Positions 3,527 to 49,571 are shown, counted from the stretch's first letter. The stretch: DNA of 64,000 nucleotides from Alphaproteobacteria bacterium (GCA_013286365.1 JABDFY010000005.1:6364-70363), one strand, 5' to 3'. Notes: generated by a model from the letters alone, not told the origin. A program made the numbers and translations.

Positions 3527-5071
3527 CTAGGTGGGCTGGCAGACGATGACGTTCCCGTCTCTCATTTCGATCCTGCTTCCCCCCTTATTCAGTAAGGCAG
3601 CTCCGATGGGTTTTTTTGGCTTTGACGCAGAAGAGGGATCTGGCTCTTTTTCTGTTAACATGTAAGCAGCGGCCAGTTTAATGGCATCCGCAAACGGTTT
3701 ACCAATCTCGTAAGGATTATCAAATTCGTTTAGCCCAAGTTTTTCTTTTGGATCATGGCTAATTCCGTTATGGCATATAAAAATCAGGACAGAGCGCACA
3801 TATTGAGCAAGGTTCATAATATCATGTCCAGCAGGCGAGGGTAGATTCATTGTTGTTATGTTTAGATTTTCCGCTAGTTTACGGAAAACACTTTGCAATT
3901 TCTCATTGAGGCGGACGGGTTCTGTTTTCGTTGCACGTAAATCTTCTTCATTGTAGGGCTCGCCATTAGCCTGCAGAACTTTCTTTGCACATCTACGAAG
4001 AATAGCCTCTGCTTTACGAAGAACGTTTGAATCAGTTGATCTTACTTCAAATGCCGTTTCAGCGAGAGCCGGGGTTGATGTTAAATTGTCGTTTTTGGTG
4101 CCAAATATTGGGAACGTTAAAACAAGGTCATTTTTTCTCCAAATCCGTGTCCACCGCAAAAATTTAGGTCCTCCTTCCAAATATAATATCCCTCGTTTAA
4201 CTAACGCTAAAAAATCAATTAATTTTAAACCCGCATCATTTCGGTCGTCTTGGGTGCCTGTGCCAGAATGTTGAGATGTGCCGCGAAAAGAAAATCGAGG
4301 AACCCGGACATTGCCTTTGATAACGTTGACGATGCCAAGGTTTAAACTGGGGATCTTTTGTCTTGCCTTTAAAAGAGTATCATATTGTTCGATGTGAATC
4401 TCTAGAGCAGAATCGATACATTCTTCAAAAGGAATTAAACATTCACGTTGGGCAATCTTGATCTTTAGTTTGCCCATATCGGCTGCTTTTTGGCTCTCAT
4501 CACCAAAGCGAGTATCTATCATAAGCTCTTCAAGCGTTTGTCCTTCTCTAGTCGCCCTCCTAAGAATGTTTTCATCTGCATTGCCTGTGGCTATGCCCGA
4601 TCCGATGCCAAACTTTTCAAATCGTGGACTTTCTTCGCAGCGCCAGACAGCCACGCAAATATCTTGTGGTGGTGCAAATGCGGCATCGTCCATTTTTGCA
4701 TCATGTAGAACTTTAACTGCGGATAATGCCGACACAATACCGGCTGGACCGTCAAATGGTCCCCCTCTCTTGACGGCATCAAGATGCGAACCAATCAGGA
4801 CAGCTGGCTTTTGCCGATCCACGCCGGGATAAACCATATAAGCATTGCCTGCCAGATCTTGGTAAAGCTCCATTCCCGTTTTGTCAGCTTCACGCATGAT
4901 TATTGCGATGGCTTCGGTCTCATTATGGCTATAACCGGGCCGATCCATGCCCAACTCATCGCTAATCCAGTGTTTGCCCAAGTGTGTTGGACTAAACAGG
5001 CGTTCAGCAAACGCCAGCGCAGCTAACTGGTATTCAGCAATCTTGGCTATCTGATGGGGTTGTAAATCCAA
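3527..5071 (-). CDS. M20-family Zn-dependent amidohydrolase (allantoate amidohydrolase / N-carbamoyl-amino-acid hydrolase-like) with C-terminal extension
   Basis: 514 aa; metal-binding motif LIGSHLDAVKRGGPFDGPAG typical of M20 amidases (HxD...DG); peptidase-dimerisation-like middle region. Confidence 0.65.
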   Translation of the reverse strand: MDLQPHQIAKIAEYQLAALAFAERLFSPTHLGKHWISDELGMDRPGYSHNETEAIAIIMREADKTGMELYQDLAGNAYMVYPGVDRQKPAVLIGSHLDAVKRGGPFDGPAGIVSALSAVKVLHDAKMDDAAFAPPQDICVAVWRCEESPRFEKFGIGSGIATGNADENILRRATREGQTLEELMIDTRFGDESQKAADMGKLKIKIAQRECLIPFEECIDSALEIHIEQYDTLLKARQKIPSLNLGIVNVIKGNVRVPRFSFRGTSQHSGTGTQDDRNDAGLKLIDFLALVKRGILYLEGGPKFLRWTRIWRKNDLVLTFPIFGTKNDNLTSTPALAETAFEVRSTDSNVLRKAEAILRRCAKKVLQANGEPYNEEDLRATKTEPVRLNEKLQSVFRKLAENLNITTMNLPSPAGHDIMNLAQYVRSVLIFICHNGISHDPKEKLGLNEFDNPYEIGKPFADAIKLAAAYMLTEKEPDPSSASKPKKPIGAALLNKGGSRIEMRDGNVIVCQPT

Positions 5072-8852: not shown

Positions 8853-8872
8853 TATGTTATATTGTAACACAA
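8853..8872. promoter_or_regulatory. candidate Fur-family (Zur-like) operator in divergent znuA / znuCB promoter region
   Basis: AT-rich inverted repeat TGTTAtattgTAACA (ATGTTATATTGTAACAC) 35 bp upstream of the binding-protein start, between divergently transcribed transporter genes. Confidence 0.35.
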
Positions 8873-8906
8873 TCATAGCTAATAATTGTTTATCATGGAG
8901 CTCATT

Positions 8907-9815
8907 ATGAATAAGACGTCTCTAGCAATCCTTGGGATGTTATTGCTTCTTGTTTCACCGGCAGAAGCGGCGCAAAGACCTCTGCAAGTCGTCGCCAGTT
9001 TTAGCATTCTTGCCGATATGGTGAGCCATATTGGAGGTGACGCGGTTACGGTTAAATCGTTAGTCGGGCCTGATATGGATACGCATACCTATGAACCTTC
9101 GCCTGAGGACGCTAAGGCTATCGCAAAAGCCGACTTAGTTTTTATAAATGGCCTTGGTTTTGAAGGATGGGTCGGAAGATTAGTTTCAGCATCGGGTTAT
9201 CATGGCGAAGTCATTGTTGCTTCGAGAGGAGTAAAAGTCAGAGAAATGTCTGAACATGAGGGCGGCTCTTCTGTGACGGTCGATGATCCCCACGCCTGGC
9301 AAGACCTTACGAATGGACGTCTTTATGCCAAAAACATCACCTTGGCCCTTGAAAAAGCACTGCCTGATCAAGCTGCAACAATTCGTGTGCGCGCTGCCAA
9401 ATATGAAGCTGAAATGAAAAATATGGACGATTATGTGCATTCACAGTTTGGCTCCATACCCCTACAGCAAAGAAAAATCATAACTAGTCACGATGCCTTC
9501 GGATATTTTGGCGAGGCCTACGGTGTGAAATTCCTGGCGCCGGTTGGTTTAAGTACTGACGCGGAACCTGCGGCGGCAGATGTCGCTGCGCTGATAAATC
9601 AAATTAAAGAGCAGGGGGTTAAGCAGCTATTTATTGAAAACATGACAAACCCAAAACTCATCGAGCAAATCGCCAGAGACTCAGGTGCTCAGATGGGCGG
9701 TACGCTTTATTCGGATGCTCTGTCAGCTAAAACTGGTCCGGCGCCGACTTATCTCGATATGTTCCGCAATAACGTGCCTAAACTCAAGGCAGCCATGCAA
9801 TTAAATGCAAGATGA
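8907..9815 (+). CDS. periplasmic metal-binding protein of ABC transporter (ZnuA/TroA family)
   Basis: Signal peptide MNKTSLAILGMLLLLVSPAEA; TroA-fold motifs (VVASFSILADMV, DMDTHTYEPSPED, ITSHDAFGYF); divergent from the ATPase/permease genes. Confidence 0.85.
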   Translation: MNKTSLAILGMLLLLVSPAEAAQRPLQVVASFSILADMVSHIGGDAVTVKSLVGPDMDTHTYEPSPEDAKAIAKADLVFINGLGFEGWVGRLVSASGYHGEVIVASRGVKVREMSEHEGGSSVTVDDPHAWQDLTNGRLYAKNITLALEKALPDQAATIRVRAAKYEAEMKNMDDYVHSQFGSIPLQQRKIITSHDAFGYFGEAYGVKFLAPVGLSTDAEPAAADVAALINQIKEQGVKQLFIENMTNPKLIEQIARDSGAQMGGTLYSDALSAKTGPAPTYLDMFRNNVPKLKAAMQLNAR

Positions 9816-9818
9816 AAT

Positions 9819-10466
9819 CTAGGGTAGAACGCTTTTGCTCGTGCCAAAATCCTGAAGATCTTTTGTTGGTGCTTGAAGCGGCGATATATTAGGTCGGTGG
9901 ATGACAGGTGATGCTTCGCTCCCGTCGCTACAGGCGATGTGCTGGGCTTGCAGCATGCCCCAAACCGTTTTACCAATATCCTGTACTTCTACAGAGCAAC
10001 GCATGTTGGTGAGTTTATTATCTGTTGAATCGGTAGAATTTTGCCAAACAGTATCAAAATAAGTCGGATCGTAGAGAGAGAAGCCAAAGCTTTTCATGCC
10101 GTCGGGAAGAACTAGGTCGAAGGTAAAGGTCTGATCGTCGCCATTGGCCTGCGAACTCACAAGTTCGACAACTTGCTGCCTCATATCCTTTCCGTTGATA
10201 TCGAGATAAAGGAAAAATGGGTGCTCAGCAATATTTGCGAGCATGTCCTTTTTAAGCAAAGGAACATCACCAATTTTTGCATCAGGGGACAAGAGTGGGT
10301 TGGCGATATCGTGAATTGCGAACTTAAAATGTAATTTGATATATCCTGGGTCACTTTTTGCTATGGTAACGTCATAACGCACGAAAATATGTGGATGAGC
10401 CTGTACCGGCATGGCTGGCAACCAACCTAAGACAATCATCATTATAAAAAGTGTGTATTTGTTCAA
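9819..10466 (-). CDS. DUF1007 family periplasmic protein (paralog 2)
   Basis: Signal peptide MNKYTLFIMMIVLGWLPAMPVQA then HPHIFVRYD motif; same architecture as 5264-5914 product. Confidence 0.6.
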   Translation of the reverse strand: MNKYTLFIMMIVLGWLPAMPVQAHPHIFVRYDVTIAKSDPGYIKLHFKFAIHDIANPLLSPDAKIGDVPLLKKDMLANIAEHPFFLYLDINGKDMRQQVVELVSSQANGDDQTFTFDLVLPDGMKSFGFSLYDPTYFDTVWQNSTDSTDNKLTNMRCSVEVQDIGKTVWGMLQAQHIACSDGSEASPVIHRPNISPLQAPTKDLQDFGTSKSVLP

Positions 10467-10916
10467 AGCTTCAACCTTGTTTTGGGTTATCTAGTTGCGC
10501 TGGAGGTTAGCGAAGCAGTTTGGTCAATATCCTCAGAGGAAAATGGGCGTTATTTATCAAAATGTACTCATATGTCGAGATCTGATGAAGAACGAGTACC
10601 ACGACCAATATCAGATCGATAATAGGCAGAATAGCTGTGGATATGTGGTCGACCAACTTGATTGAGGTGGCGACCTCGATATGAATAATTTTCCTCTCAC
10701 CATTTATGGTAGGCAAATATGTCTTATCCCGCAGCCATATTGACAGCTTGTACAGACGGTAACCGATTGAATTTCCATAAGTTTAGACACATTTTTAGGT
10801 GATTTAAGAGCATTTTCGCTGGCATGTAAGTTGCAACAAAAACGAACGAGACGCGGCAATGACTAGGGTAGGGCTACATAGGAACGTTGCCTCATTTGAG
10901 ACAAAGGGGAAGTAGG

Positions 10917-11180
10917 ATGCAGCCACTTCAGCAATCGATGTCGAAAGTATCCATACAACTAAATAAAAGCGTTGATAATCTTTTATTTGCTCACCCACAT
11001 GAGCAGGGGGAAACATACTTTCAACATATGGTCTTCACACTCAAATTGAGTGGGCAGTTAACGGCTGTGGCTTTCTGCTTGATTATTCACGGTTTGATAC
11101 CAGCGTTTTTCATGACGACCGCTAGTCGTATGGTCTTAAGAGTGGGCGAAGTACTCAAGACCAGAAAATTTTCGGATTAG
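10917..11180 (+). CDS. small hypothetical membrane protein
   Basis: ORF with His-rich segment FAHPHEQGETYFQHM and one hydrophobic helix; start uncertain (10887 or 10917). Confidence 0.3.
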   Translation: MQPLQQSMSKVSIQLNKSVDNLLFAHPHEQGETYFQHMVFTLKLSGQLTAVAFCLIIHGLIPAFFMTTASRMVLRVGEVLKTRKFSD

Positions 11181-11272
11181 TTTTCTTTCTTGTTGTGTTC
11201 CTATGAAGTAAGACCATATCTACAACAGAGAGTTTCAATCAAAGATATGGAAGGGGCTGAAGAGCTAATTTA

Positions 11273-12748
11273 ATGGAAACATTCCCACGCCTCATATGCG
11301 ATCGCGAACGCGGACTAGAAAAATATGGCTGTTCAACAGACCCAGAACCCGAGGTCCTGGCCTATGGTTCATCAACTGCTTCGACTATATCATTCTCTGG
11401 CTATGCGGCCGCGGCGAAACTTTATCAGCGATTGGAAAAGGAAACTGGTCGTAGAGCACCGTCTGCTGTCTATGAGCAAGAATTGAGCCGCATCCGTGGT
11501 GAACTTCTCAAGACTCTAAAATTAGATAGCCTTACGGGCTTAGATACCATCTTCGCTGCCTCAGGAACGGATCTTCATTTGCTGACGGCCCAGCTTGCGC
11601 GCTCCGCAAGTGATGCGCCGTTACTTGCCATTATGGTCGAACTCGCTGAAACAGGTGGTGGCGTTTTGGCAGCGCTGAAGGGTCGCCATTTTGTCAATCA
11701 TACGGCTTACGATGATGTTGTCGTTGGCGAAGCCATCGGTCAGAACTGCAATATAGATTTGCATGTGGTACCCTTACATGCAGAGGATGGCCAGTTTAAA
11801 GACATAGCCATTATCGATGCAGACGTAAGCTCGTCTGTCGAAAGTGCTGTTGCAGCCGGACGACGTGTGTTACTCAATACGGTCGACGTCTCGAAGACAG
11901 GGTTAATAGCACCAAGTTTAGCGTGTGTATTTGATCTACGCCGACGGTTTCCTAATCAGGTCGATGTTCTTGTCGACGCTTGCCAATTTCGTCTGGCTTC
12001 ATCTACGTTGCGCGCCTACCTTGAAGAAGGATTGTGGGTTGGCGTTACAGGGTCGAAGTTTTACACAGGACCCACATTTTCGGGTGTGCTTTTTTTGCCA
12101 CCAGCAGTAGCCCAACGAATGCATAATGTTTCACTTCCACCCGCCCTACGCGCGTATTCTGCTTGCGCGGACTGGCCTCTAAATTGGGCGGCAAGACGGG
12201 GACTTGCGCAGGCTGCAAATTACGGCCTTTTGTTGCGCTGGGAGGCGGCATTGAATGAGATGTGTGCATTTGAAGAGCTGTCAGCTGAACGTATCCTTGC
12301 GTTTTTTAAACGGTTTGCCGCAGTTATTAACGATCGGATCGCGTCGGAATCATTGTTTTCACCTCTAACGTTACCAGACCTTAATAGAAATCCACTTCCG
12401 GTAGCGGATAATTGGGACAGTGTTAGGACGATATTTCCATTCTTGTTGCGCCATGAAGGAACAGACGGGAGCATGTTAAACCGCGATGAAACAAAGCAAA
12501 TATATAAACTTCTTAACAAAGAGAGCGGTATTAATCTAAAATCAACCGTGACAAAACGGCGCTGCCAAGTTGGACAACCAGTGCTATGTGCTGATAGTCA
12601 TGGCATGCCAGTTGGTGCATTGCGCCTATGCATGAGTGCACGATTAGCAGTTGATGCTCTTGCTTCTCATGGACGCGGCGAGGATATTGTCATTGATGAG
12701 GCTTTATTAGTGCTTGATAAAACGGCACAACTTATTCGTCAGCTTTGA
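11273..12748 (+). CDS. PLP-dependent enzyme, aminotransferase class V fold (SufS/kynureninase-like), function unknown
   Basis: 491 aa; FAASGTD small-domain motif and DACQ...GSKFYTGPTFSGVLF, matching the class V pattern DAxQ...SGHKxxGPxGxGxL with a candidate PLP-lysine. Confidence 0.55.
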   Translation: METFPRLICDRERGLEKYGCSTDPEPEVLAYGSSTASTISFSGYAAAAKLYQRLEKETGRRAPSAVYEQELSRIRGELLKTLKLDSLTGLDTIFAASGTDLHLLTAQLARSASDAPLLAIMVELAETGGGVLAALKGRHFVNHTAYDDVVVGEAIGQNCNIDLHVVPLHAEDGQFKDIAIIDADVSSSVESAVAAGRRVLLNTVDVSKTGLIAPSLACVFDLRRRFPNQVDVLVDACQFRLASSTLRAYLEEGLWVGVTGSKFYTGPTFSGVLFLPPAVAQRMHNVSLPPALRAYSACADWPLNWAARRGLAQAANYGLLLRWEAALNEMCAFEELSAERILAFFKRFAAVINDRIASESLFSPLTLPDLNRNPLPVADNWDSVRTIFPFLLRHEGTDGSMLNRDETKQIYKLLNKESGINLKSTVTKRRCQVGQPVLCADSHGMPVGALRLCMSARLAVDALASHGRGEDIVIDEALLVLDKTAQLIRQL

Positions 12749-12803
12749 TATTGATGTCTAAGTGTCGAACGCTTAGCCTACATGGATAACCTAAGAGGGT
12801 GAC

Positions 12804-13214
12804 ATGTTGATTACTGTTTGTACCGGAAAACTACATTGTGTGCGCGTCACCGACGCATGTCTTAATTATCAAGGCAGCATCACAATTGATAGGCAGCTCA
12901 TGAAAGCGGCCGGCATAGTTCCCTTTCAGCTAGTCCATATTAACAGTATGGCTAATGCCGCTCATTGGGAAACTTACGCAATCTCTGGGGGCCCTGGCGA
13001 GATTTGTCTCAATGGTTGTCCTGCGCGACTATTTCAACCTGGTGACAAAGTCATCATACTAGCTCTCGCGCACGGTACTCTTGAGGAGGCAGAGAAAGTC
13101 AAACATAAAGTTGTCCATGTCGATGACAACAATAATATTATAAGTGTTGATATTAAACCCGCCAGCAAAGCAAAACAGCCGAATACGTCAAAAACGAAGA
13201 AAAAGAGATCATGA
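12804..13214 (+). CDS. panD: aspartate 1-decarboxylase (beta-alanine forming)
   Basis: 136 aa; MLITVCTGKLHCVRVTDACLNYQGSITIDRQLM..AGI...V.I.N..N..H.ETYAI aligns with PanD (GKLHRV..A.L.YEGS..ID); has the Gly-Ser self-cleavage site (YQGS); RBS AGAGGG upstream. Confidence 0.85.
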   Translation: MLITVCTGKLHCVRVTDACLNYQGSITIDRQLMKAAGIVPFQLVHINSMANAAHWETYAISGGPGEICLNGCPARLFQPGDKVIILALAHGTLEEAEKVKHKVVHVDDNNNIISVDIKPASKAKQPNTSKTKKKRS

Positions 13215-13303
13215 TATCTGCAATCAGGTCAAATTACTGCAGTTACTGGCAGATATTTTTACCCTTATCAAGGGGTGACCTTCCCTACAACCACGGGTGA
13301 GTA

Positions 13304-15118
13304 ATGTCAGCTACTTCAGCCGTCGATCCCATTATTGACAGAGCCTTCACGCATCATCAGGAGGGAGAACTCAATGAAGCTGAAGCACTTTATTGTAAGG
13401 CCCTAGAAAAGGATGCCGATAATTTTCAGGCACATCAGTTATTAGGCACTTTAAAGTTGCGTGGTGGAAATATTGATGAGGCGCTTAGACACCTTAGTCG
13501 CGCTCTTGCCATTCTAGAAGGCCGCGGAGAAATGACGGCGCGACATGCGTTGCTCTATAACAATTTAGGCACGGCTCTTCGTTTGTCGGGGCGTAATGCT
13601 GAAGCGGCTGCTTATTTTAAACAAGGGTTAAAGCTTGATCCCAGCTTAATCGAACTCCATATCTCGCTGGGTGGATCCTTAATGGAACAGGGTGATTTTA
13701 TCAATGCCACCACGTGCTTCGAGTCCGCCTTAAATCTCGATCCTAATTTACCGGGATGTTTATGCGATCTTGGCACTGCTTATGCCCGAGCTGGGCGTCT
13801 CGAAGATGCCGTGGAACTGTACCGTCGAGCCCTGTCGATAGTTCCTTCACATTGGCCGGCGCGCATCAACCTTGCCCAGTTGCTGCGACGTACGGAGAAA
13901 TATGACGAGGCGATCATTTTACTGACGAAACTTTTGGAGGAGCAACCAGGCGACCTTCCTGTATTGAAGCAGCTGGGCATGGCGCATGTAGCGGCAGGCA
14001 ATCTGGAATCAGCGCTTGGCTATTTTCGTAGAGTACTAGCAAAAAAAGACGACGACGCCGAAGCTTTGCAGTACGTAGCAAATATCCAGCAGGCCGTGGG
14101 TGATAATGAGGCGGCAAGTAAAAACTATCGGCGCAGCCTCCAATTAAAACCCTTGATTACTATCTCAGCGACTAAATCACCACCTGACTTTCGGGCGCTT
14201 CTGCTCTTTGCCCCCGGCGCGGGCAACACGCCACTCGATTGTCTCGCGGATCGGGCGGAATACGAAAATAACATACTTAACTTTTTTCCGGATATTTCTT
14301 ATGACATCGAAATGTTACGTAATTGTTCCGACGTCGTTGTCAATCTTATTGCTGACGTTGATCAAGGACATGCAATGCTGGTACCAGCAGTGGATCTTGT
14401 CGACCGTCTAGGCAAACCAACCGTCAATCACCCTCGGAAAATATTATTGACTGACCGAGCGTCTATAGCGCGTATTTTAAAATCCACACCAAATTGTTGT
14501 GTTCCCGAAACACTCCGCTATAAGGGTTCCGATTTGCGCGCTACAAACTTTGACATGAGCCAGACGCCATTTTCGTTCCCCTTTCTTGTACGTCTTACCG
14601 GAACTCATGGCGGGCAAAATTTTGAGAAGATCGATGACAATACAGGATTGATGACCTTTGTAGCGCAGCATCCTGATGCAGATTTTTATGTTACGGATTA
14701 TGTTGATTACCGCTCAAGCGACGGATATTTCAGAAAATACCGTTATATATTCGTCAACGACGAAATTCTTCCTTACCATCTTGCTATTGATGACAAATGG
14801 AAAATCCATCATGTAACTACGGACATGGCAAACCAGGTGTGGATGCAGAATGAAGAAAAATCTTTTCTTGAAAACCCTCATGCCACATTTGGACCTCATC
14901 AATACGAAGCCTTACGCGCAATCCGTCACAGTGTAGGGCTTGAATATTTTGGCATCGATTGTGGTCTTGATCGGTCAGGGCGTGTCGTTGTGTTTGAAGT
15001 TAATGCTTGTATGTTGGTCCATCAACATAATGAGCAGTTCCCCTACAAAATCGAGCCCGTAAATCGTATCAAGGCAGCATTTGATCTCATGATTAAGCGT
15101 ATGGCGCTTAACAAATGA
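13304..15118 (+). CDS. TPR-repeat protein fused to C-terminal ATP-grasp-like ligase domain
   Basis: N-terminal about 280 aa of TPR-like repeats (AEALYCKALEKDADNFQAHQLLG...); C-terminal region with ATP-grasp hallmarks (EYFGIDCGLDRSGRVVVFEVNACM; DFYVTDYVDYRSSDGYFRKYRYIFV). Confidence 0.55.
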   Translation: MSATSAVDPIIDRAFTHHQEGELNEAEALYCKALEKDADNFQAHQLLGTLKLRGGNIDEALRHLSRALAILEGRGEMTARHALLYNNLGTALRLSGRNAEAAAYFKQGLKLDPSLIELHISLGGSLMEQGDFINATTCFESALNLDPNLPGCLCDLGTAYARAGRLEDAVELYRRALSIVPSHWPARINLAQLLRRTEKYDEAIILLTKLLEEQPGDLPVLKQLGMAHVAAGNLESALGYFRRVLAKKDDDAEALQYVANIQQAVGDNEAASKNYRRSLQLKPLITISATKSPPDFRALLLFAPGAGNTPLDCLADRAEYENNILNFFPDISYDIEMLRNCSDVVVNLIADVDQGHAMLVPAVDLVDRLGKPTVNHPRKILLTDRASIARILKSTPNCCVPETLRYKGSDLRATNFDMSQTPFSFPFLVRLTGTHGGQNFEKIDDNTGLMTFVAQHPDADFYVTDYVDYRSSDGYFRKYRYIFVNDEILPYHLAIDDKWKIHHVTTDMANQVWMQNEEKSFLENPHATFGPHQYEALRAIRHSVGLEYFGIDCGLDRSGRVVVFEVNACMLVHQHNEQFPYKIEPVNRIKAAFDLMIKRMALNK

Positions 15119-15649
15119 GTTGGGTGCAAAGATCTCATTTGAGCGCTCGACGACTATCGTCAGCCATTGTCTGAGGTCCACTATACTTATTGTATTTGCA
15201 CTCTCGCTCTAGCCGCTGCGTATGACAAATTATTGTCTGCGCCTTATTTGCGACAAAATTAAAGTTGACTTTTGTCTTCATTGAAACGGAATAAACGTGA
15301 TGACTTCTCAATGCAAAATATATCCAAACGCAAGACGATTTTATTACCCAGAAATGTTGTTTTATGGGGCCGACGTATGTCGGCGCCCATTCTTTATCGC
15401 GGCGGTCTTTGGCAGTTGGCGCGCGGTTTAGAATACCGACCTGGAATCCAATCATTTTCTAGAAACGAATTTGTAATTGACGCGCGATCATATACATTTC
15501 TATTCTTCGCTCTATCATTCAAGTTGTCGCGTGTGGTTAACTACTGTATCTTCCTCTTGATTTAGTTTGCTTCAGACTTCGGTTCTCTGCGCTCATGCAC
15601 AAACTAGTCGCGCCAACTTTGACTAAAAGTAAGTATCAAATGAGGAAAT

Positions 15650-16228
15650 ATGTTTAGCAATTCCTTCAACACAATTCTTGCGGCTTCTGCCCATCAACCG
15701 TTTTTTCAATCAGGTGTAATTGTCGTCGGTACTTTTATTCTTGAAGATGCAGCAACAGTCTTGACCGCTATGCGAGCCGAAGAGGGATTAATCCCTATGG
15801 TGTATGCGCTTGGTGCTCTTTTTGTTGGCATCGTTCTGGGCGATCTTGGATTATATGGTCTTGGTCGGCTATCGGCATGGACAGGCTGGTTTCAACAATT
15901 TCTGCCAGAATGCCGCACACTTCCGGCTCGCCAGTGGCTTGATGGACGTGTTGGGATGGCTGTGTTTACCAGCCGCTTTTTGCCTGGCATGCGCCTACCA
16001 ACATATACGGCTTGTGGCTATTTGGCTGTTCCATTTGCCCCATTTGTCCTCGCTTCTGTTGTTGCAACACTCATCTGGACGACCCTGCTGTTTGGTGTAT
16101 CGCTGAGTTTTGGGGCGTTAATCATGAAGCATTTGGGCGAATGGCGTTGGCTTGGGGTGATGGCTTTTACCCTCAGTATTATTTTGCTTGGTAGATTTGC
16201 ACGCCGGTTCTATGAAGTGCGCCGATGA
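15650..16228 (+). CDS. DedA/SNARE-associated (TVP38/TMEM64) family membrane protein
   Basis: 192 aa, 4-5 TM helices, VGTFILEDAATVLTA and FTSRFLPGMR motifs typical of the DedA family; start overlaps next gene (ATGA). Confidence 0.55.
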   Translation: MFSNSFNTILAASAHQPFFQSGVIVVGTFILEDAATVLTAMRAEEGLIPMVYALGALFVGIVLGDLGLYGLGRLSAWTGWFQQFLPECRTLPARQWLDGRVGMAVFTSRFLPGMRLPTYTACGYLAVPFAPFVLASVVATLIWTTLLFGVSLSFGALIMKHLGEWRWLGVMAFTLSIILLGRFARRFYEVRR

Positions 16229-17340
16229 CCAATATTAGTTCAGCAGGCCTCTACCAGCGTTCTCGCCGCCGCGATTTTTCGGTTACGAAGGCTCCATTGT
16301 CCTATTTTGAATATTGGCCCGGTTGGATCTTCTATTTGCCTGTTGTGTTGCAATGGATTGCGCTAGGGCTCAAACATCGTGACTTAGCCCTACCAACGCT
16401 TGCTAATCCGTTTATTGAAACAGGCGGAATGTGCGGCGAATCGAAGGTAGGTATTCTAGATCAAATTGGCGCTCCGGCATGCCATTTGGTGGCGCGTTAC
16501 ACCAGTTTCGTCACGGCTGCAATATGCGACCGCGATCATGTAACAGCAGAAGCTGCAATGTGTGCGGCAGGCCTTAGTTACCCCATCGTTGTAAAACCTG
16601 ACATTAGTTGTAATGGCACAGGTGTAAGGGTTGCTAAAGGACAAGAGGCTTTAAGACGCTATTTTCTAGAGTATCCTCGTTCGACGCGTGTGATTTTACA
16701 GGAACTCATTCATGATCCACTCGAAGCGGGTGTCTTTTATGTACGCCAGCCTGGGGAAGCGTCCGGCATTATAACTTCTCTTACGCTCAAGTTTGCGCCT
16801 TATGTTGATGGTGACGGTGTCTCAACTTTACGTGAGTTGATTATAAATGACCAACGTGCTGGGCAGATTGCTAAATTGTATCTACCGCGGTTGGAAGAAA
16901 GGCTGGACACTATACCGTCTCTGGGCGAAAGAATACCGCTCGTGTTCGTTGGCAATCATTGCAAGGGGTCGATTTTCCAAAACGGCAATTCTGAAATCAC
17001 ACCTGCGATGACGAGATGCTTTGATGAGATGGCAAAGAGTTTACCAGAGTTCTATTTCGGCCGCTTCGATGTACGCTATTCTTCTTTGGCAGATTTAAAG
17101 CGAGGTACTGGTTTCCGGCTTATCGAAGTTAATGGCGTGGGCTCTGAGGCGACGCACATTTGGGATAAAGACACGCGGCTGTCGGATGCCTATGCAACGT
17201 TATTCAAGCATTACAGGATGGCTTTTAAGATCGGAGCGGCCAACCGTAAACGTGGGTACCGGGGCATGAAATTGCTTATGTTGAATAGTCAGTGGCGCCG
17301 GCAAAAACGCCTAATGGCAAGTTACCCACTAAGTGATTGA
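16225..17340 (+). CDS. ATP-grasp family ligase (RimK / alpha-L-glutamate-ligase-like) with N-terminal membrane-associated segment
   Basis: 371 aa; YPIVVKPDISCNGTGVRVAKGQEAL (ATP-grasp phosphate-binding region), FRLIEVNGVGSEATHIWD (C-terminal catalytic loop); N-terminal hydrophobic stretch WPGWIFYLPVVLQWIALGL. Confidence 0.5.
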   Translation: MTNISSAGLYQRSRRRDFSVTKAPLSYFEYWPGWIFYLPVVLQWIALGLKHRDLALPTLANPFIETGGMCGESKVGILDQIGAPACHLVARYTSFVTAAICDRDHVTAEAAMCAAGLSYPIVVKPDISCNGTGVRVAKGQEALRRYFLEYPRSTRVILQELIHDPLEAGVFYVRQPGEASGIITSLTLKFAPYVDGDGVSTLRELIINDQRAGQIAKLYLPRLEERLDTIPSLGERIPLVFVGNHCKGSIFQNGNSEITPAMTRCFDEMAKSLPEFYFGRFDVRYSSLADLKRGTGFRLIEVNGVGSEATHIWDKDTRLSDAYATLFKHYRMAFKIGAANRKRGYRGMKLLMLNSQWRRQKRLMASYPLSD

Positions 17341-17524
17341 ATATATTATATAATCCTAATAAATCCCCTGCAGAAAAAGACGATCAAATCTAAGATAAAC
17401 AAACCAAACGACTAAAGAAGGTTGCTATGGGTCTTAATTTTTTCATCTTTTTTTTCCATCATTATGCCATGCTTTGACGGATATATTGGGGGCCGTATGG
17501 CGGGAGAGATCGGGGAGAAAATTC

Positions 17525-17770
17525 ATGCAAAGCGCTTCTAGTTTCAATTCTATCGTCCATTTTGGCGCGCGTTTGAGTGCTGCAGCTTTGGTTTTACTCT
17601 TGATCGCGGGTTGCGCTGTGGTTGAACCGGTTCCCGCTGAAGAGGGATATTACCCGGGTCCTGCGGGATATTATTATGCGTATCCTCCCTATCCCTATTA
17701 TTATGGACGAGCCTATTACGGGCCTGCCTACTATGGTCCCAATATCGGCGTCGGTGTAAGGGTCCGCTGA
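17525..17770 (+). CDS. small lipoprotein with Tyr/Gly/Pro-rich low-complexity tail
   Basis: MQSASSFNSIVHFGARLSAAALVLLLIAGC lipobox; C-terminus YYPGPAGYYYAYPPYPYYYGRAYYGPAYYGP. Confidence 0.45.
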   Translation: MQSASSFNSIVHFGARLSAAALVLLLIAGCAVVEPVPAEEGYYPGPAGYYYAYPPYPYYYGRAYYGPAYYGPNIGVGVRVR

Positions 17771-17964
17771 GTTAAATTTTTTCTGTAACTAGTCGTTGAA
17801 AAAATTTAATCAGAGATTTGTAAATCAAGGTTTCGTCAAAAATAAATCTTCCGCCATAAATATGTCATAATTTTTCATGAGTATGTCGCGCCGCGAAAAT
17901 AAGCGGTTAGCCGATCTCGGACAGCTTAGGCTATTCTGAATAATCTCGCTTAGTGGAGAAAGAC

Positions 17965-18519
17965 ATGAAGTGCAGACAATTTTTTCTAGCAGCGTTTCTG
18001 TTATTGGCGCTCGCTGTATCGGGTTCTGCTCGGGCACAAGACGCTGCAGAGCATAACAAGGCAGGTCACGATAGGTGGGCACACCACGGTCAATGTGAAA
18101 TGCTTCGCTTACCGAAAGAGAAAAGAGAATTGTATCATGAAACTATGAAGAAGGTTTATGAAGATAACAAAGACGAATTTAGTGAAATGCACAAACTTCA
18201 CAAACAGTTGCACAATGTCTTGAAGGCTGAAACCTTTGATGCCGATGCCTTCACAAGTCTTAGTGGGCAGATCGAACAAGTCCATAATAAGATTCACAAA
18301 GCGCGCACTGATGCCTTGGCTTCCATTGCCGATCAGTTCACGCCTAAAGAACGTGTAATGATCATGCATCATCACGGCTGCCACCATAAGCATGGCCATG
18401 GAGGTATGCGCGGTAAATGGGACCATGATCATGAAGGTATGAGAGATCATTCTACGGATAGTTGGCAGATGCCTCAGCAGCAGGATGATCGGGCTTATCC
18501 GCCATATACCACGAAATAA
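17965..18519 (+). CDS. Spy/CpxP/ZraP-family periplasmic protein with His-rich C-terminus
   Basis: Signal peptide MKCRQFFLAAFLLLALAVSGSARA; helical LTxxQ-like repeats; tail HHHGCHHKHGHGGMRGKWDHDHEGMRDH; RBS GGAGAAAG. Confidence 0.55.
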   Translation: MKCRQFFLAAFLLLALAVSGSARAQDAAEHNKAGHDRWAHHGQCEMLRLPKEKRELYHETMKKVYEDNKDEFSEMHKLHKQLHNVLKAETFDADAFTSLSGQIEQVHNKIHKARTDALASIADQFTPKERVMIMHHHGCHHKHGHGGMRGKWDHDHEGMRDHSTDSWQMPQQQDDRAYPPYTTK

Positions 18520-44492: not shown

Positions 44493-47400
44493 TCAACCAG
44501 GCGTCAAGGCGTGATAAACAACCTCAGTGCCACTATGTCCGTCGGAACTTAAACCGAAACTTCCCGGATATGAACCAGGTACTATGATTGTATCCGTGCC
44601 AGCAGAACTGTTATGCAAAGTGATTGTTCCCGCTGTGTCCGCAGCATTCTCTTTAAAATTGAACGCTGTAGAGAATAGCGGAAAGTTTTTGATATCAATA
44701 AGGCTGCCGGGCTTGGCAAGATTTTCAATAATAAGGTTAGCTACGTCGGATGTAACCTGGAAGGTCGTTGAGCCAATGGTCGAGCCAATCAAGGTGTCGC
44801 CGCTACTACCGTTGAGTGTCGTTCCTGCGTTAGCAGCTATGAGTGTTTGCTTGGGAGCATCGATGAAGGTTTTAAATCCACGTATCTGATCAATATAGGT
44901 TTTTCCGGCTTCTACATAAGTGGCCGTTCCGGCAACCGTATTAACGGTCACTGCAGCGGCCACTTTATTGAAGCTCAAGGTTGGATTATTAACCCCAGAT
45001 GAGACCAACTTAACTGAGACTTCGTTGGGGGCGAGTGTCGTCTGTTCGGTTACCGCTTGAGCCACAGCAGCCGGTTTAGGAGGATCAACCATGTATGTGC
45101 CGCTAACCCCATCAGAAGAGAGAACATAGCTTCCTGCTGTAAAATTGCCATTTATATAGAACGATGTGCTTTGCCCTACGGTGTTTGAAAGACTGAACAA
45201 AGTTTGATTACCGGCGACAAGACTGGCCGTAACTGTGGCCGTTGTCGGAGCAAAGTTGGTTATGTCAATGACATCACTGGTGGGCGTATAATTGTTAATT
45301 GTAATGGGAGAGAGTGCGCTATTGAATTGAAAGGTCGTATTGCCACCTACGTAGCCGTACATCGTCGTTGAACTTGCATCTGCAATCAGTGTTTGCCCGG
45401 GGGCTGTGGCTGTAATTACGGCACCTGGGGATGTTGATACCAGCAAATCACTGCTGTAAGTCACACTGGGGTTGGGCAATTCGATATTATTACCCGTACC
45501 CATGATTGAAAGCTGCACCCCAGTGCCGCCGCCTGGATCACCATTCCGTCCAATCGTATTATTGTTGCCTATAATCGTGAGGTTGACGCCTGTTCCGACA
45601 AGAACCAAGTTGTTTGATCCAACCAAGATATTATTTGCGTCCCCTGCAACAAAATTGATGGTCGAGTTTGATAAATTGACGATGTTGCCCTTACCGGCCA
45701 CCATCGGATAGTCACCGTTGCCGCCAGTTATCAGATTGTTTGGGCCAACTACGGTTGAGCTAACATTGGCACCAAATGTTATGTAATTGCCGCCCCCGTT
45801 AATCCATGCATTCTTGCTTCCAGCATTATAGGCTATGGTGGCGTTCGATTCTGAGGTTGTGATGTTGGGGCCGCTTGCCACTATCGTTGTTCCGCCACCA
45901 CCACTGGGATCGCCGTTTACCCCTATGGTAAAGCCGGTGCCATAGGCCGCTAAGTTGACGCCCGGACCAGTGAGTATTAGGTCACTGCCGCCATAAACGG
46001 TATCGAAGGCACTACCTCGAACAAAATTAAGGGCGCAGTTTGATAAATCGACAGTCGTATAGCTGCCATCGATGAGGATATTTGCGCCAACACCGCCACC
46101 CGGATCGCCATTACTCCCTACAGTATTATAGTTGCCGACAAGCGAGGCCCCTATGCCGGTACCTACAAGGAACAAATCGTTATTGCCGTAGATCATTTGG
46201 TTAAGCGACCCAGCAGGGCAATTGATGGTGGAATAATCAAGCGTAGCTGTGTCACCGTTGCCCGCTAGCATCAGAATATCGCTGTTTCCTGTTATCGTAT
46301 TATGCGAGAGACCTGTGGCCCAAACGATCACGCTAGAGCCATAACCAATACTGATCTTGTCGTTAGCCCCGTTGATAGTCTCGTTGACGACGCCAGGGGC
46401 AATTTCAAAATCTACATTGGATACTGTTGCTGTGTTTTCACTATCTTTCAGCATTATTTCGAGAGGTGAGACGACCTCTCCCTGCACGAATTTGGCGTAC
46501 TCTGTCATCTGCGCTGAGGTAAACACAACTGTGGGTGTTCCTGGGTCGGTTAGACTAACCGCAAGGGAAACACCTTCAGCCGCAAGCTTCTGATCGGTTG
46601 GAATGCCGCTTATCATGTTTGCCAAAGATTCGCTGATGCTTAAGTTATGCGGACCCGTCATTGTGACTTGATCAAGCCCTATGGCCTGAGCTTGGGATAA
46701 TGCATTCATAAATGTCGAAAGAGCGTTAGGATCGCTTGACGTCGTCACGGCAGCGAGATAGCCCAAGGGATCAGCGACATATTGACTATAGATAGAAGCC
46801 GCATCGACGTTCGTTATTAGATTGGCAAGCGAACCATCAAGGCTTTGGTTGAAGGCATACATAACAATGGGGTTGCCCCCAATGATTGTAATGTTTTGCA
46901 ACCAGTTCATTACGGCTGCATCGATGCAATCTGTTGCATTTGTAAAACCGGCATCTTGGGGCGGGGCATAACCTGGCGCTATATCTCCAGGTGCAAAAAA
47001 TAATTTGTCTTTGAAAACGCCAAACGAATAGACCGATGAAGGCCCCCAGCCTATTACTGTTCCACCGGTAGACTTAATGATGTCGTTAAACATAGTCGTA
47101 AAGTCGTTACCCATGTTTATGGCGGTCTGTAGATCACTATTGGGACCACCTACATTGCCGCCGTTGTCAAAAGTTTCTTTAAATTCAATTGATACGTTTT
47201 CGGCGTTAATACCAACTTGGGCTACGGCGTTTGGCCCAACCGTTGGTACACTGCCGCCGCCAATGAAATTTTCGAAGGCATTAAGAGCATCACCAGCCAA
47301 GGTTCCTATGGCCTCGCCTACTGCTGAAGCAATTGGCCCCCAGTATGACCCTATTGCCGCACCCAGAGATCCTCCGACTTCCGCTGCTGTGTTATTGCTT

Positions 47401-49571
47401 GGAATAATTTCATTGATGACCATTGATACCGCTATATCCAGGCCTGCCGTCTCGAAGCTAGTGCCGAAGGTATCTCCAAACGTAGTAGCATCAGGCAAAG
47501 CGTTCGCCGATGAAACATTCGTGATCCCAAATTGCTCTAGCGTTGATTGGGCTAGCGCTGTGTCAGCCAGTTGGCTGGTTACTATATAGGCCGAGAGCTG
47601 TTGAGCCGTTGCCTGAAATGCAGCAGCACCAACGAGAGAGCCAAGCTGAGTTGGGATAAACCCCGTCAGTTTGGCAAGATCGGCACCGGCAATAGAGCCT
47701 AGAATGCCGCTCGCCATGTTACTGATCGAGGCTGCAACATCAGTCGCAAAATCTGGCGGGTTAGCCGTGGGCGTAATGGCCTGTTCGGCTGCATCAATGC
47801 CCGCTTTGATAAAAGCCTGGCTGACGACGGAGGCCGGAATGTTATGTGCGAAAGCGAAGTCAGAGACAATAATCCCTGCTACGGCATTAGCTATATATCC
47901 TCCCAATATTGTCGATTCAGCAGGATTGCCATCCAAGCTGGAGCCGAGGGAGGGCAATTGAAGACCGTCTGAATTGCTGAAATCAAGCTTGATCAGAAAG
48001 GCCCCTGTAATGGGGTCGTAATATGAAACTGAGGTGCCGTCTGCCGTGGTTGTGGTTTGCTGGGTTAAGATACCATTGTTGGTATTGACGACCTTTATGG
48101 AGTTGGTGCCATCGGCATTAGTATTATAGGTAGCATAAGAATTGCCTGAACTACTGACCTGTACACCGCCGACATTCTGGCCAGCAGCATTATTAATGGC
48201 GACGGTCGTACCATCCGATGAATTTGTGATATTGAAGGTTGAATTGGGGCTAGATGCATTAAGTGGAACGTTCACTAATCCTTGTCCTCCCGTGAGAACG
48301 AGCCACGCATTATTAGAAGTCGGATCAATCAGAATTTGTGGCGTCGATCCTGCCGTTGAGAAGTCCGATAAAGTGATATCCGGGCCGCTATTGCTAATAA
48401 CAGGTGATGCGCCATCAGGAATGACGAAATAATTACCGCCCGATAGAAATGTCATCTCAGAGCTGGCACTGGGTATAGACAAGACGCTGGTAGTGTCGGA
48501 CGTTGGATTGGTGAAAGCGGCAGAAACGCCGCCACCAGTCAACGGAGTGACGACAGGCTCATCATTTTTTCCGAAACCTACAACTTCCTTGTTGGCTGAT
48601 AATGTGCCGCCACTAGCATTAGTTTGCTCAATATAATTGGAGCTAGGATTTAGAAAATCTTGGACATTTAAAATTGCCGATGCCGCATTGCTGCCGTCAG
48701 CGGCAAGATCCAAACTTACGCCTGGCGCAAGATTATAAATGCTCGCACTACTTGGTTGCGCTAAGTAATCTTTGAAATCGATTTGTTGAGGGTTTGTCGG
48801 GCCCAAGAGAAACTGTTGTAAAGTAATACCTTCCTGTTGAATGTACTGATCAAGTTCTTGAAGGTTGTTTTGTGCGGCAGTGAGAGCTGTATGAAATGCT
48901 CCCGCCAACGAATCTTCCTGTAATCCAAGTACATGGGTATAAGTGATGCTAACGCTATCGGTAGCAAATGCGTCAGCTTGATTTTGTGTATAACCACGCA
49001 AAAGTAACGCGGAAAAATAGTCTTGAGTTGTTGAAAGTGCGATGAGGTGATAAGCATCGGCCAGCCCTTGTTCAGCAGGCGTAAGCTGGTCATAAAACGA
49101 GGTATCGGAAAAGCCAGTTGCAATGCCAGGAGCTGCGCCTGCCCAAGAGTACTGTGCAACCCCTAGTGCGGTGACACCTTTTTGTGCATCGACACTTTGA
49201 ATTTGTTGAAAATCTGGAATTACTCCGTTTCCGTTAATTATATCCGTAAAAAATGCTTTTGCTATACTATTGGATGAGTTCTGTTCTTGGGGGCCAAAGA
49301 GGTTGATTATTTCACCAAGTTGATCAAGGACAGCAGCTTGGTTAACGGCGCGAATAGCGACAGCATCAAATGTTGAAGCCCCCGAATTTACGTCATAAGC
49401 GATGCTTATCCAATTTAATATCTGCTGGTCAGCAGGGCTTGGGTTTGGGTTTTGTGTCTTCAAGTCTTGAAGCACCGCATTATATCCAACCGCATAATTA
49501 GGAAGATTAGGATTATTCCTGAGTTGATTAAGTAATAAGAGCGTATTTGCTGATATTTGCATATTAACCAC
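44493..49571 (-). CDS. giant (1692 aa) Gly/Asn/Thr/Ser-rich repeat protein, probable beta-helical surface/secreted protein without N-terminal signal peptide
   Basis: Tandem about 50-aa repeats (NFV.G....L.G.N.L.L.G.GVNL...G...T.G.NGDPGGG.G); no Sec signal (MVNMQISANTLLLLNQ...); start overlaps upstream 227-aa secreted-protein gene by 8 nt. Confidence 0.55.
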   Translation of the reverse strand: MVNMQISANTLLLLNQLRNNPNLPNYAVGYNAVLQDLKTQNPNPSPADQQILNWISIAYDVNSGASTFDAVAIRAVNQAAVLDQLGEIINLFGPQEQNSSNSIAKAFFTDIINGNGVIPDFQQIQSVDAQKGVTALGVAQYSWAGAAPGIATGFSDTSFYDQLTPAEQGLADAYHLIALSTTQDYFSALLLRGYTQNQADAFATDSVSITYTHVLGLQEDSLAGAFHTALTAAQNNLQELDQYIQQEGITLQQFLLGPTNPQQIDFKDYLAQPSSASIYNLAPGVSLDLAADGSNAASAILNVQDFLNPSSNYIEQTNASGGTLSANKEVVGFGKNDEPVVTPLTGGGVSAAFTNPTSDTTSVLSIPSASSEMTFLSGGNYFVIPDGASPVISNSGPDITLSDFSTAGSTPQILIDPTSNNAWLVLTGGQGLVNVPLNASSPNSTFNITNSSDGTTVAINNAAGQNVGGVQVSSSGNSYATYNTNADGTNSIKVVNTNNGILTQQTTTTADGTSVSYYDPITGAFLIKLDFSNSDGLQLPSLGSSLDGNPAESTILGGYIANAVAGIIVSDFAFAHNIPASVVSQAFIKAGIDAAEQAITPTANPPDFATDVAASISNMASGILGSIAGADLAKLTGFIPTQLGSLVGAAAFQATAQQLSAYIVTSQLADTALAQSTLEQFGITNVSSANALPDATTFGDTFGTSFETAGLDIAVSMVINEIIPSNNTAAEVGGSLGAAIGSYWGPIASAVGEAIGTLAGDALNAFENFIGGGSVPTVGPNAVAQVGINAENVSIEFKETFDNGGNVGGPNSDLQTAINMGNDFTTMFNDIIKSTGGTVIGWGPSSVYSFGVFKDKLFFAPGDIAPGYAPPQDAGFTNATDCIDAAVMNWLQNITIIGGNPIVMYAFNQSLDGSLANLITNVDAASIYSQYVADPLGYLAAVTTSSDPNALSTFMNALSQAQAIGLDQVTMTGPHNLSISESLANMISGIPTDQKLAAEGVSLAVSLTDPGTPTVVFTSAQMTEYAKFVQGEVVSPLEIMLKDSENTATVSNVDFEIAPGVVNETINGANDKISIGYGSSVIVWATGLSHNTITGNSDILMLAGNGDTATLDYSTINCPAGSLNQMIYGNNDLFLVGTGIGASLVGNYNTVGSNGDPGGGVGANILIDGSYTTVDLSNCALNFVRGSAFDTVYGGSDLILTGPGVNLAAYGTGFTIGVNGDPSGGGGTTIVASGPNITTSESNATIAYNAGSKNAWINGGGNYITFGANVSSTVVGPNNLITGGNGDYPMVAGKGNIVNLSNSTINFVAGDANNILVGSNNLVLVGTGVNLTIIGNNNTIGRNGDPGGGTGVQLSIMGTGNNIELPNPSVTYSSDLLVSTSPGAVITATAPGQTLIADASSTTMYGYVGGNTTFQFNSALSPITINNYTPTSDVIDITNFAPTTATVTASLVAGNQTLFSLSNTVGQSTSFYINGNFTAGSYVLSSDGVSGTYMVDPPKPAAVAQAVTEQTTLAPNEVSVKLVSSGVNNPTLSFNKVAAAVTVNTVAGTATYVEAGKTYIDQIRGFKTFIDAPKQTLIAANAGTTLNGSSGDTLIGSTIGSTTFQVTSDVANLIIENLAKPGSLIDIKNFPLFSTAFNFKENAADTAGTITLHNSSAGTDTIIVPGSYPGSFGLSSDGHSGTEVVYHALTPG

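Follow-up and report, generated by a model that had tools for sequence, protein, structure and literature searches.

The ATP-grasp enzymes ArgX, LysX, and RimK ligate amino acids at protein carboxylates, and the tetratricopeptide repeat (TPR) is a protein-recognition module. CrpG, of cryptophycin biosynthesis, is a precedent for a paralogue of the aspartate 1-decarboxylase PanD in secondary metabolism. The strictly conserved residues of aspartate 1-decarboxylase include Arg54, Ala74, and Ala75 (PMC3314653), of which Arg54 binds the beta-carboxylate of aspartate and sets the specificity (PMC3314653, PMC3975893). Flagellin modification islands contain TPR-glycosyltransferases of the FlmG/FlmQ type, and in FlmG the modifying enzyme is joined to a TPR domain (PMC7591256). 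We analyzed a 64,000-nucleotide stretch of DNA from an Alphaproteobacteria bacterium (GCA_013286365.1, JABDFY010000005.1:6364-70363; hereafter the window), in which five consecutive genes encode a protein of predicted class-V pyridoxal phosphate (PLP) fold (p1), a PanD-like decarboxylase, a TPR-ATP-grasp protein (p3), a DedA-family membrane protein, and a second ATP-grasp ligase (p5). An earlier note, made from the sequence, had proposed that all five form a single biosynthetic cluster that uses beta-alanine; it had missed a DUF6356 gene that precedes p1 on the same strand. The DUF6356 gene and the first three genes are treated below as module A and the last two as module B.

For the comparison of loci, p1 was chosen as the marker because it is without confusing paralogues. 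A scan of 185,579 species genomes confirmed 345 stretches with a p1 relative, and the counts of species loci given here rest on 80 of these. An ATP-grasp gene homologous to the C-terminal domain of p3 (26-36% identity) adjoined the p1 homologue in 76 of the 80 species loci, and a Pyridoxal_deC decarboxylase (PF00282, ∼489 residues, E = 2.3e-64) was present in 53. Of the 50 loci in which all three genes occurred together, 49 had them on one strand with the decarboxylase gene first, the ATP-grasp gene second, and p1 last; the median gaps were -4 and 2 bp. The window carries the same set of a p1 gene, a homologous ATP-grasp gene, and a decarboxylase gene, the decarboxylase being PanD-like rather than Pyridoxal_deC. 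By this comparison of gene content, module A is a rare variant of a widespread decarboxylase/ATP-grasp/p1 cassette that uses a group-II PLP decarboxylase in most genomes. Given how regularly p1 and the ATP-grasp gene are paired, it is reasonable to propose, as the earlier note did, an uncharacterized pathway in which a decarboxylase supplies amide formation, but the five-gene scope did not hold.

Homologues of DedA and p5 were found in none of the 82 other p1 loci within ±10 kb, and homologues of p1, PanD, and p3 were found in none of 83 p5 loci, so the cassette is not conserved as a unit of five. In 65 of the 69 metagenome loci with room for it, a DedA homologue directly preceded the p5 homologue on one strand, as it did in three further loci (L088-L090); in these three and in the window the two genes overlap by 4 bp and are translationally coupled. 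The five genes are indeed open reading frames on one strand, as the earlier note had it, with gaps of 55 and 89 bp along module A and the 4-bp overlap inside module B; its description of close spacing fails at the 531 bp between p3 and DedA, a gap that parts the modules and compares with 55-92 bp inside module A. Because co-occurrence was absent in either direction and DedA-p5 is a conserved pair, the five genes are best described as two independent modules. The fuller statement, that these are independent neighbors of which A would perform decarboxylase-fed amide ligation, likely on a protein, and B would serve the envelope or a lipid carrier, seems to us evenly balanced between right and wrong.

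The PanD-like protein matched PF02261 at 126.8 bits against a gathering score of 25 (E = 4.8e-37), but missed the NCBIfam equivalog cut-off of TIGR00223 (104.3 versus 106 bits); its naming as panD is thus sound for the domain and not for the canonical enzyme. When aligned with the PanD proteins of E. coli, M. tuberculosis, and H. pylori, it retained K9, H11, Y22, the G24-S25 cleavage site, T57, and Y58, and so has the fold family, the self-cleavage site, and the catalytic residues of canonical PanD. It differs from canonical PanD in carrying His54-Trp55-Glu56 in place of Arg54-Phe/Leu-x (Phe55 being replaced by Trp), Cys72-Pro73 (window numbering) in place of Ala74-Ala75, and a Lys-rich C-terminal tail, and in having no panBC neighbors. 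In agreement with the earlier note, neither gene calls nor scans of the 64-kb window revealed a panB, panC, or panE.

In four loci the place of the Pyridoxal_deC decarboxylase is taken by a PanD-like protein, namely in the window, L003, L019 (an alphaproteobacterium), and L036 (a Phycisphaerales genome). The gene order is p1-PanD-p3 in the window and DUF6356-p1-p3-PanD in L003, the proteins of which are 54-79% identical to those of the window. That the PanD-like gene is linked to p1 and an ATP-grasp gene four times independently, with the gene order varying, supports the earlier view that it did not stray here from pantothenate synthesis. The four proteins share 62-76% mutual identity and are 34-42% identical to PanD of E. 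coli, M. tuberculosis, and H. pylori; in an exhaustive search of 1.84 billion cluster representatives, only five reached E ≤ 1e-30 to the PanD-like protein. Among the 150 nearest PanD representatives at 50% identity, 35 were without Arg54 (His, Phe, Leu, or others instead; P0363-P0481). Trp55 and Pro73 occurred together in 29 of these 35, and neither was present in 108 of the 115 representatives with Arg54, while the catalytic residues were kept in both groups. The PanD-like clade was not represented in the plasmid collection, where the best matches were canonical panD genes at 47-54% identity. By these sequence patterns the clade is coherent and probably active, with a remodelled specificity pocket.

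The PanD-like protein may still make beta-alanine, but this cannot be assumed. Because Arg54 is replaced by His, beta-alanine is not secure as its product, nor as the building block that the earlier note had proposed. The PLP decarboxylase of the canonical cassette does not settle the identity of the amine either: the models that came closest, those of DABA decarboxylase and PanP, were each missed by a wide margin, and among the PDB chains nearest to it are decarboxylases of aromatic amino acids (DOPA, tyrosine, tryptophan) and of the desferrioxamine pathway. Annotation pipelines will label the PanD-like genes aspartate 1-decarboxylase, so that capacity for beta-alanine and CoA synthesis will be wrongly inferred in metabolic reconstructions.

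The N-terminal half of p3 contains TPR repeats that were detected by sequence models, and its C-terminal domain has, in the predicted structure, an ATP-grasp fold of the RimK/LysX/ArgX/GshB type. The nearest folds were those of ArgX, LysX, and RimK, with GshB also among the structural neighbors. No curated model scored above threshold for p3 (best, ATPgrasp_YheCD at 17.3 versus 26.8 bits; no passing match to RimK, PF08443). The profile of full-length p3 against the PDB was dominated by TPR matches; the C-terminal domain was used alone instead and gave a best match at E = 9e-4. D552 and E565 did not vary among 33 sequences drawn from the two ATP-grasp types, nor did N567 and K478 among the 40 close homologues; by motif position these are putative Mg/ATP ligands. 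The protein differs from RimK, LysX, and ArgX in several respects: identity is ∼16%, those enzymes are without the 280-residue TPR domain, and their systems involve S6 or the LysW carrier, whereas p3 showed no tie to S6 or to a LysW-like carrier and is accompanied by a decarboxylase and a PLP enzyme. For SphA, a Foldseek match, the papers found dealt only with small-molecule amino-acid and natural-product enzymology and not with peptide modification.

TPR-fused relatives of p3 form a sister group of the canonical ATP-grasp proteins and are 52-64% identical to p3 in the ligase domain. Four of their contexts were inspected, of which one was flagellar and three had the gene standing alone. At locus L175 (3338-11668), a TPR-GT41 (OGT-like) gene is divergent from a TPR-ATP-grasp gene whose product is 61% identical to the p3 ligase domain, and an 85-residue open reading frame and fliC-fliD-fliT follow; this locus may modify flagellin in two ways. 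The ATP-grasp gene of L003 adjoins a gene whose product has TPRs and weakly matches GT9.

The p1 protein has the fold-type I, class-V PLP architecture according to its structural model, and it had no Pfam or NCBIfam match even at E ≤ 10; a profile of its family found no chain in the PDB. K262 (in TGSKF) and D235 are invariant with class-V-like spacing and are the putative Schiff-base lysine and pyridine-nitrogen aspartate. Identity to the class-V enzymes (C-DES, the desulfurases NifS/IscS/SufS, and transaminases of the AGT/PhnW/SerC type) is only 8-15%, and p1 is ∼100 residues longer than typical members of the class; the closest structural match was cystine C-S lyase. There are at least 1995 homologues at ∼50% identity. 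The 345 stretches in species genomes are mostly from Beta- and Alphaproteobacteria, with some from Gamma- and Deltaproteobacteria, one from Phycisphaerales, and one from Riflebacteria. The family comprises thousands of proteins, none of them recognized by any sequence model.

Two p1 homologues that are 40% identical to the window protein are encoded on rhizobial plasmids (L171, S. meliloti pEm1132a, 8926-10461; L174, R. leguminosarum Vaf10 plasmid, 8893-10428). They overlap by 4 bp with the stop of a giant nonribosomal peptide synthetase/polyketide synthase (NRPS/PKS) gene or of an AMP-binding gene, and a gene with a ParB-N domain comes next, so that the orphan family also has a setting in secondary metabolism. 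In Sulfuricella sp. T08 (L013, 9890-12403), an 822-residue p1-type protein (P0115) carries a C-terminal methyltransferase domain (PF13649/PF08242), a fusion that hints at methylation of the product or target of the cassette as well.

The domain calls of the earlier note were borne out, those for PanD (PF02261), DedA (PF09335), and TPR by sequence models; the calls for p1, the p3 ligase domain, and p5 needed structure prediction or family profiles. Of the ligases, p3 is nearest the RimK/LysX type by fold and p5 the cyanophycin-synthetase type by profile.

The cassette is an ordered set of three genes in hundreds of proteobacterial species, often inside a flagellar filament/export locus. Genes for flagellin, FlaG, FliD, FliK, an FlhB-like protein, or YcgR lay within 10 kb in 19 of the 46 p1 loci that were at least 15 kb long (24 of 80 overall). 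The operon abuts flagellar genes in Sulfuricella, Sulfuriferula, Sapientia, Solimicrobium, Noviherbaspirillum, and Methylobacter, and two loci (L022 and L070) have it flanked by fliFGHI on one side and fliK...fliD-flaG-fliC on the other, without intervening genes for sugar biosynthesis. The canonical cassette and a close p3 homologue share their flagellar setting with the flagellin modification islands of TPR-glycosyltransferases, and the joining of TPRs to a modifying enzyme is likewise found in FlmG; the catalytic domain there is a glycosyltransferase, whereas here it is an ATP-grasp ligase, and the window is without flagellar genes. Our literature searches found nothing relevant on flagellin with ATP-grasp, with beta-alanine, or with a decarboxylase, no report of flagellin modification by an ATP-grasp enzyme, and none on the three-gene cassette.

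For module A we propose a mechanism each step of which is inferred. The decarboxylase would turn an amino acid into a small amine, perhaps beta-alanine; the ATP-grasp domain would activate a carboxylate as an acyl phosphate and couple it to the amine, giving an amide; selection of the acceptor would fall to the TPR domain, the acceptor being most likely a protein or peptide, and flagellin in the canonical loci; and p1 would make or tailor the donor. We prefer modification of a protein because of the ArgX, LysX, and RimK fold neighbors, the TPR domain, and the flagellar loci. In its complete form, the proposal is that module A is a protein modification system in which an amine from the Arg54-less PanD clade, whose substrate specificity would be new, would be attached by the TPR-guided ATP-grasp enzyme, as an amide, to acidic residues or a C terminus, and that the form with a group-II decarboxylase would target flagellin, as an undescribed non-glycan modification common in Beta- and Alphaproteobacteria. 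So detailed a proposal is unlikely to be right in every part. If the cassette does modify flagellin, the chemistry would be new to flagella and open to testing in strains already in culture.

Several observations weigh against modification of a protein or against the division into modules. The copy in the window lies outside a flagellar setting, a setting that only 19 of the 46 long loci have in any case, and no homologue of flagellin, FliD, FlaG, FliK, FlhB-like proteins, or YcgR was found in the 64 kb; the closest relative of the cassette (L003) likewise has no flagellar gene within 10 kb. The ATP-grasp protein of the canonical cassette has no Pfam-detectable TPR and is ∼29% identical to p3, so that functional orthology of the two is assumed. 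The genes for the closest homologues of p3, found in Caballeronia and in two other genomes, have neither p1 nor a decarboxylase beside them, and the ligase is therefore not always dependent on a dedicated amine supply. The adjacency of modules A and B in this genome could also reflect a local functional link between them.

Other observations of this kind fit small-molecule chemistry, and they bear on the reading that module A makes a free small molecule, such as a beta-alanyl or aminoacyl amide, a homoglutathione-like thiol, or a metal-binding compound, with no protein being modified. The ATP-grasp enzyme would then be GshB-like or L-amino-acid-ligase-like, p1 would act on a precursor as a transaminase or C-S lyase, and the decarboxylase would supply the amine. 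The top structural match of p1 suits this reading, as does the position of p1 homologues directly 3' of NRPS/PKS genes on the Sinorhizobium and Rhizobium plasmids and after a glutathione S-transferase-like gene in R. tropici; metal-homeostasis genes flank the cluster of the window, and a cation diffusion facilitator (CDF) transporter gene is near the L003 cassette. Against these points, a TPR domain of 280 residues is unusual in a small-molecule ligase and typical of protein binding, the best fold matches of p3 act on proteins, the canonical cassette sits in flagellar structural loci rather than metabolic ones, and the Zur-box-like palindrome of znuA (described below) has no copy near the cluster. 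We regard a free product as somewhat unlikely. Where the earlier note suggested a small amide, peptide, or polyamide, the TPR-fused RimK/LysX/ArgX-like ligase and its flagellar relatives point at least equally to modification of a protein.

A single pathway of all five genes, with the two ATP-grasp ligases acting in series on a membrane-associated beta-alanyl amide, peptide, or polyamide and DedA handling the product, is improbable. In this genome the genes do follow one another in one direction, each ligase is a plausibly active ATP-grasp enzyme, and the likeness of p5 to the backbone-elongating domain of cyanophycin synthetase would suit a polyamide; yet co-occurrence was zero in 165 independent loci taken in both directions, DedA-p5 has conserved partners of its own (BacA and a CDF transporter), the 531-bp gap before DedA contains promoter-like hexamers (at counts equal to those of shuffled sequence), and the PanD-like protein is without the aspartate-specificity residue. 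That the gene is an ordinary aspartate 1-decarboxylase gene for pantothenate and CoA with accidental neighbors is very improbable, for although the Pfam domain is strong and the self-processing and catalytic residues are intact, the score is under the equivalog cut-off, the strictly conserved Arg54, Ala74, and Ala75 (PMC3314653) are replaced, the same unusual clade stands beside p1 and an ATP-grasp gene in four loci of different lineages, and the window has no panB or panC.

Module B, under the two-module reading, is a ubiquitous gene pair with a setting of its own. DedA proteins have been reported as undecaprenyl-phosphate transporters. The DedA protein of the window matched PF09335 at 46.2 versus 33.9 bits (E = 8e-12) and has three or four hydrophobic segments; it fell short of the UptA equivalog (20.6 versus 250). 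A gene for BacA, an undecaprenyl-diphosphate phosphatase (PF02673), came after the p5 gene in half of the loci (25 of 50), and a CDF transporter gene was divergent upstream in ∼9 of 44. Homologues of p5 number at least 2237 at 54-60% identity, and their profile matched the PDB chains 8fxh (of the cyanophycin-synthetase-2 type; E = 3.6e-7), 7ta5 (5.5e-6), and the CphA1 chain 7lgn (9e-5). The best match, over ∼200 residues, was to the backbone-ligating ATP-grasp domain of cyanophycin synthetase (CphA1/CphA2). The two differ in that p5 has 371 residues and the ATP-grasp part only, whereas the cyanophycin enzymes have 629-909, in that p5 scored 19.7 against the TIGR02068 cut-off of 850, and in its coupling to DedA and often BacA. 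An N-terminal aromatic motif of p5 is invariant (S26, F28, E29, W31, P32, W34, F36, P39); the membrane segment that had been assigned to this end of the protein is uncertain, as the region is aromatic-rich and below the hydropathy threshold of 1.6 (∼1.46 by hand estimate). The BacA neighbor, the weak UptA match, and the role of DedA proteins suggest that module B more probably serves a cell-envelope or lipid-carrier function separate from module A. The trio of DedA, ATP-grasp, and BacA suggests an unstudied ATP-dependent step tied to undecaprenyl-phosphate handling, and nothing was found in the literature on a pairing of DedA with ATP-grasp.

The superfamily of each protein is known already, as are amide-forming ATP-grasp cassettes as a kind. 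What is new is the conserved combination of decarboxylase, ATP-grasp, and PLP enzyme and its occurrence among flagellar genes, together with a class-V-fold family that is a sequence orphan and a PanD clade lacking Arg54.

Table 1. Genes of the two modules and the znuA-like gene, with positions in the window.
Feature	Position	Strand	Remarks
DUF6356 small membrane protein	10887-11180	+	PF19883; 92 bp 5' of p1; first gene of module A
p1, predicted class-V-fold PLP-type protein	11273-12748	+	491 aa; marker gene of module A
PanD-like pyruvoyl decarboxylase	12804-13214	+	136 aa; PF02261; module A
p3, TPR superhelix (~9-281) and predicted ATP-grasp domain (~284-604)	13304-15118	+	604 aa; module A
DedA/VTT-domain membrane protein	15650-16228	+	192 aa; PF09335; first gene of module B
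p5, ATP-grasp ligase	16225-17340	+	371 aa; second gene of module B
znuA-like gene	8886-9815		divergent from znuCB-like genes

The calls for all five genes were identical in the source contig (Logan assembly, SRR8422039), from whose gene set the DUF6356 gene is missing. The DUF6356 protein matched its domain at E = 1.1e-17 and has, in the 97 residues listed, one or two hydrophobic segments at residues 48-80; translation may in fact begin at an internal Met. L003 has a homologue of 47% identity in the corresponding place 5' of its p1 homologue (9610-9897), and no DUF6356 homologue was found in the other 80 p1 loci.

The cluster is flanked by metal-homeostasis genes, with NicO, ZnuABC-like, and DUF1007 genes upstream and a Metal_resist gene downstream. 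A near-perfect, Zur-box-like palindrome, TGTTATATTGTAACA (8855-8869), is located 17 bp upstream of the znuA-like gene. No copy with three or fewer mismatches was found near either module, and its count across the window was at chance level. These neighbors had suggested a metallophore as the product, but no Zur-like site is shared; a metal regulatory tie was rejected, and the metal link amounts to adjacency only. A promoter and terminator scan of 10400-17900 gave counts equal to those of shuffled sequence and was uninformative, and Rfam and tRNA scans of the window gave no matches. The DNA of the window is chromosomal on the basis of its PurL, LeuB, and HsdR restriction-subunit genes, and no near-identical DNA was found in the plasmid collection.

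Elsewhere in the window, a PurL of the short subunit type (738 residues, TIGR01736) is encoded at 274-2490 on the plus strand; the GC content is ∼45%. A PurL of this type argues against an origin in a beta- or gammaproteobacterium, and together with the p5 relatives it suggests that the source may be an alphaproteobacterium. An integrated mobile element (∼30000-51000) includes relaxase, NikA-like, and Toprim_3 genes and a run of ORFans without Pfam matches, among them a 1692-residue protein (44493-49571) and neighbors of 425-520 residues. An M20 amidase of the hydantoinase/carbamoylase family (3527-5071, minus strand; best E = 4.7e-62) lies 6 kb from the cluster on the opposite strand and resembles allantoate amidohydrolase and N-carbamoyl-amino-acid hydrolase; amidases of this kind include the beta-ureidopropionases, which provide another route to beta-alanine. 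Between module B and the Metal_resist (Spy/ZraP-like) gene at 17953-18519 is a plus-strand gene (17474-17770) for a 98-residue protein without a Pfam match, which has one hydrophobic segment and a Tyr/Pro/Gly-rich tail, YYPGPAGYYYAYPPYPYYYGRAYYGPAYYGP.

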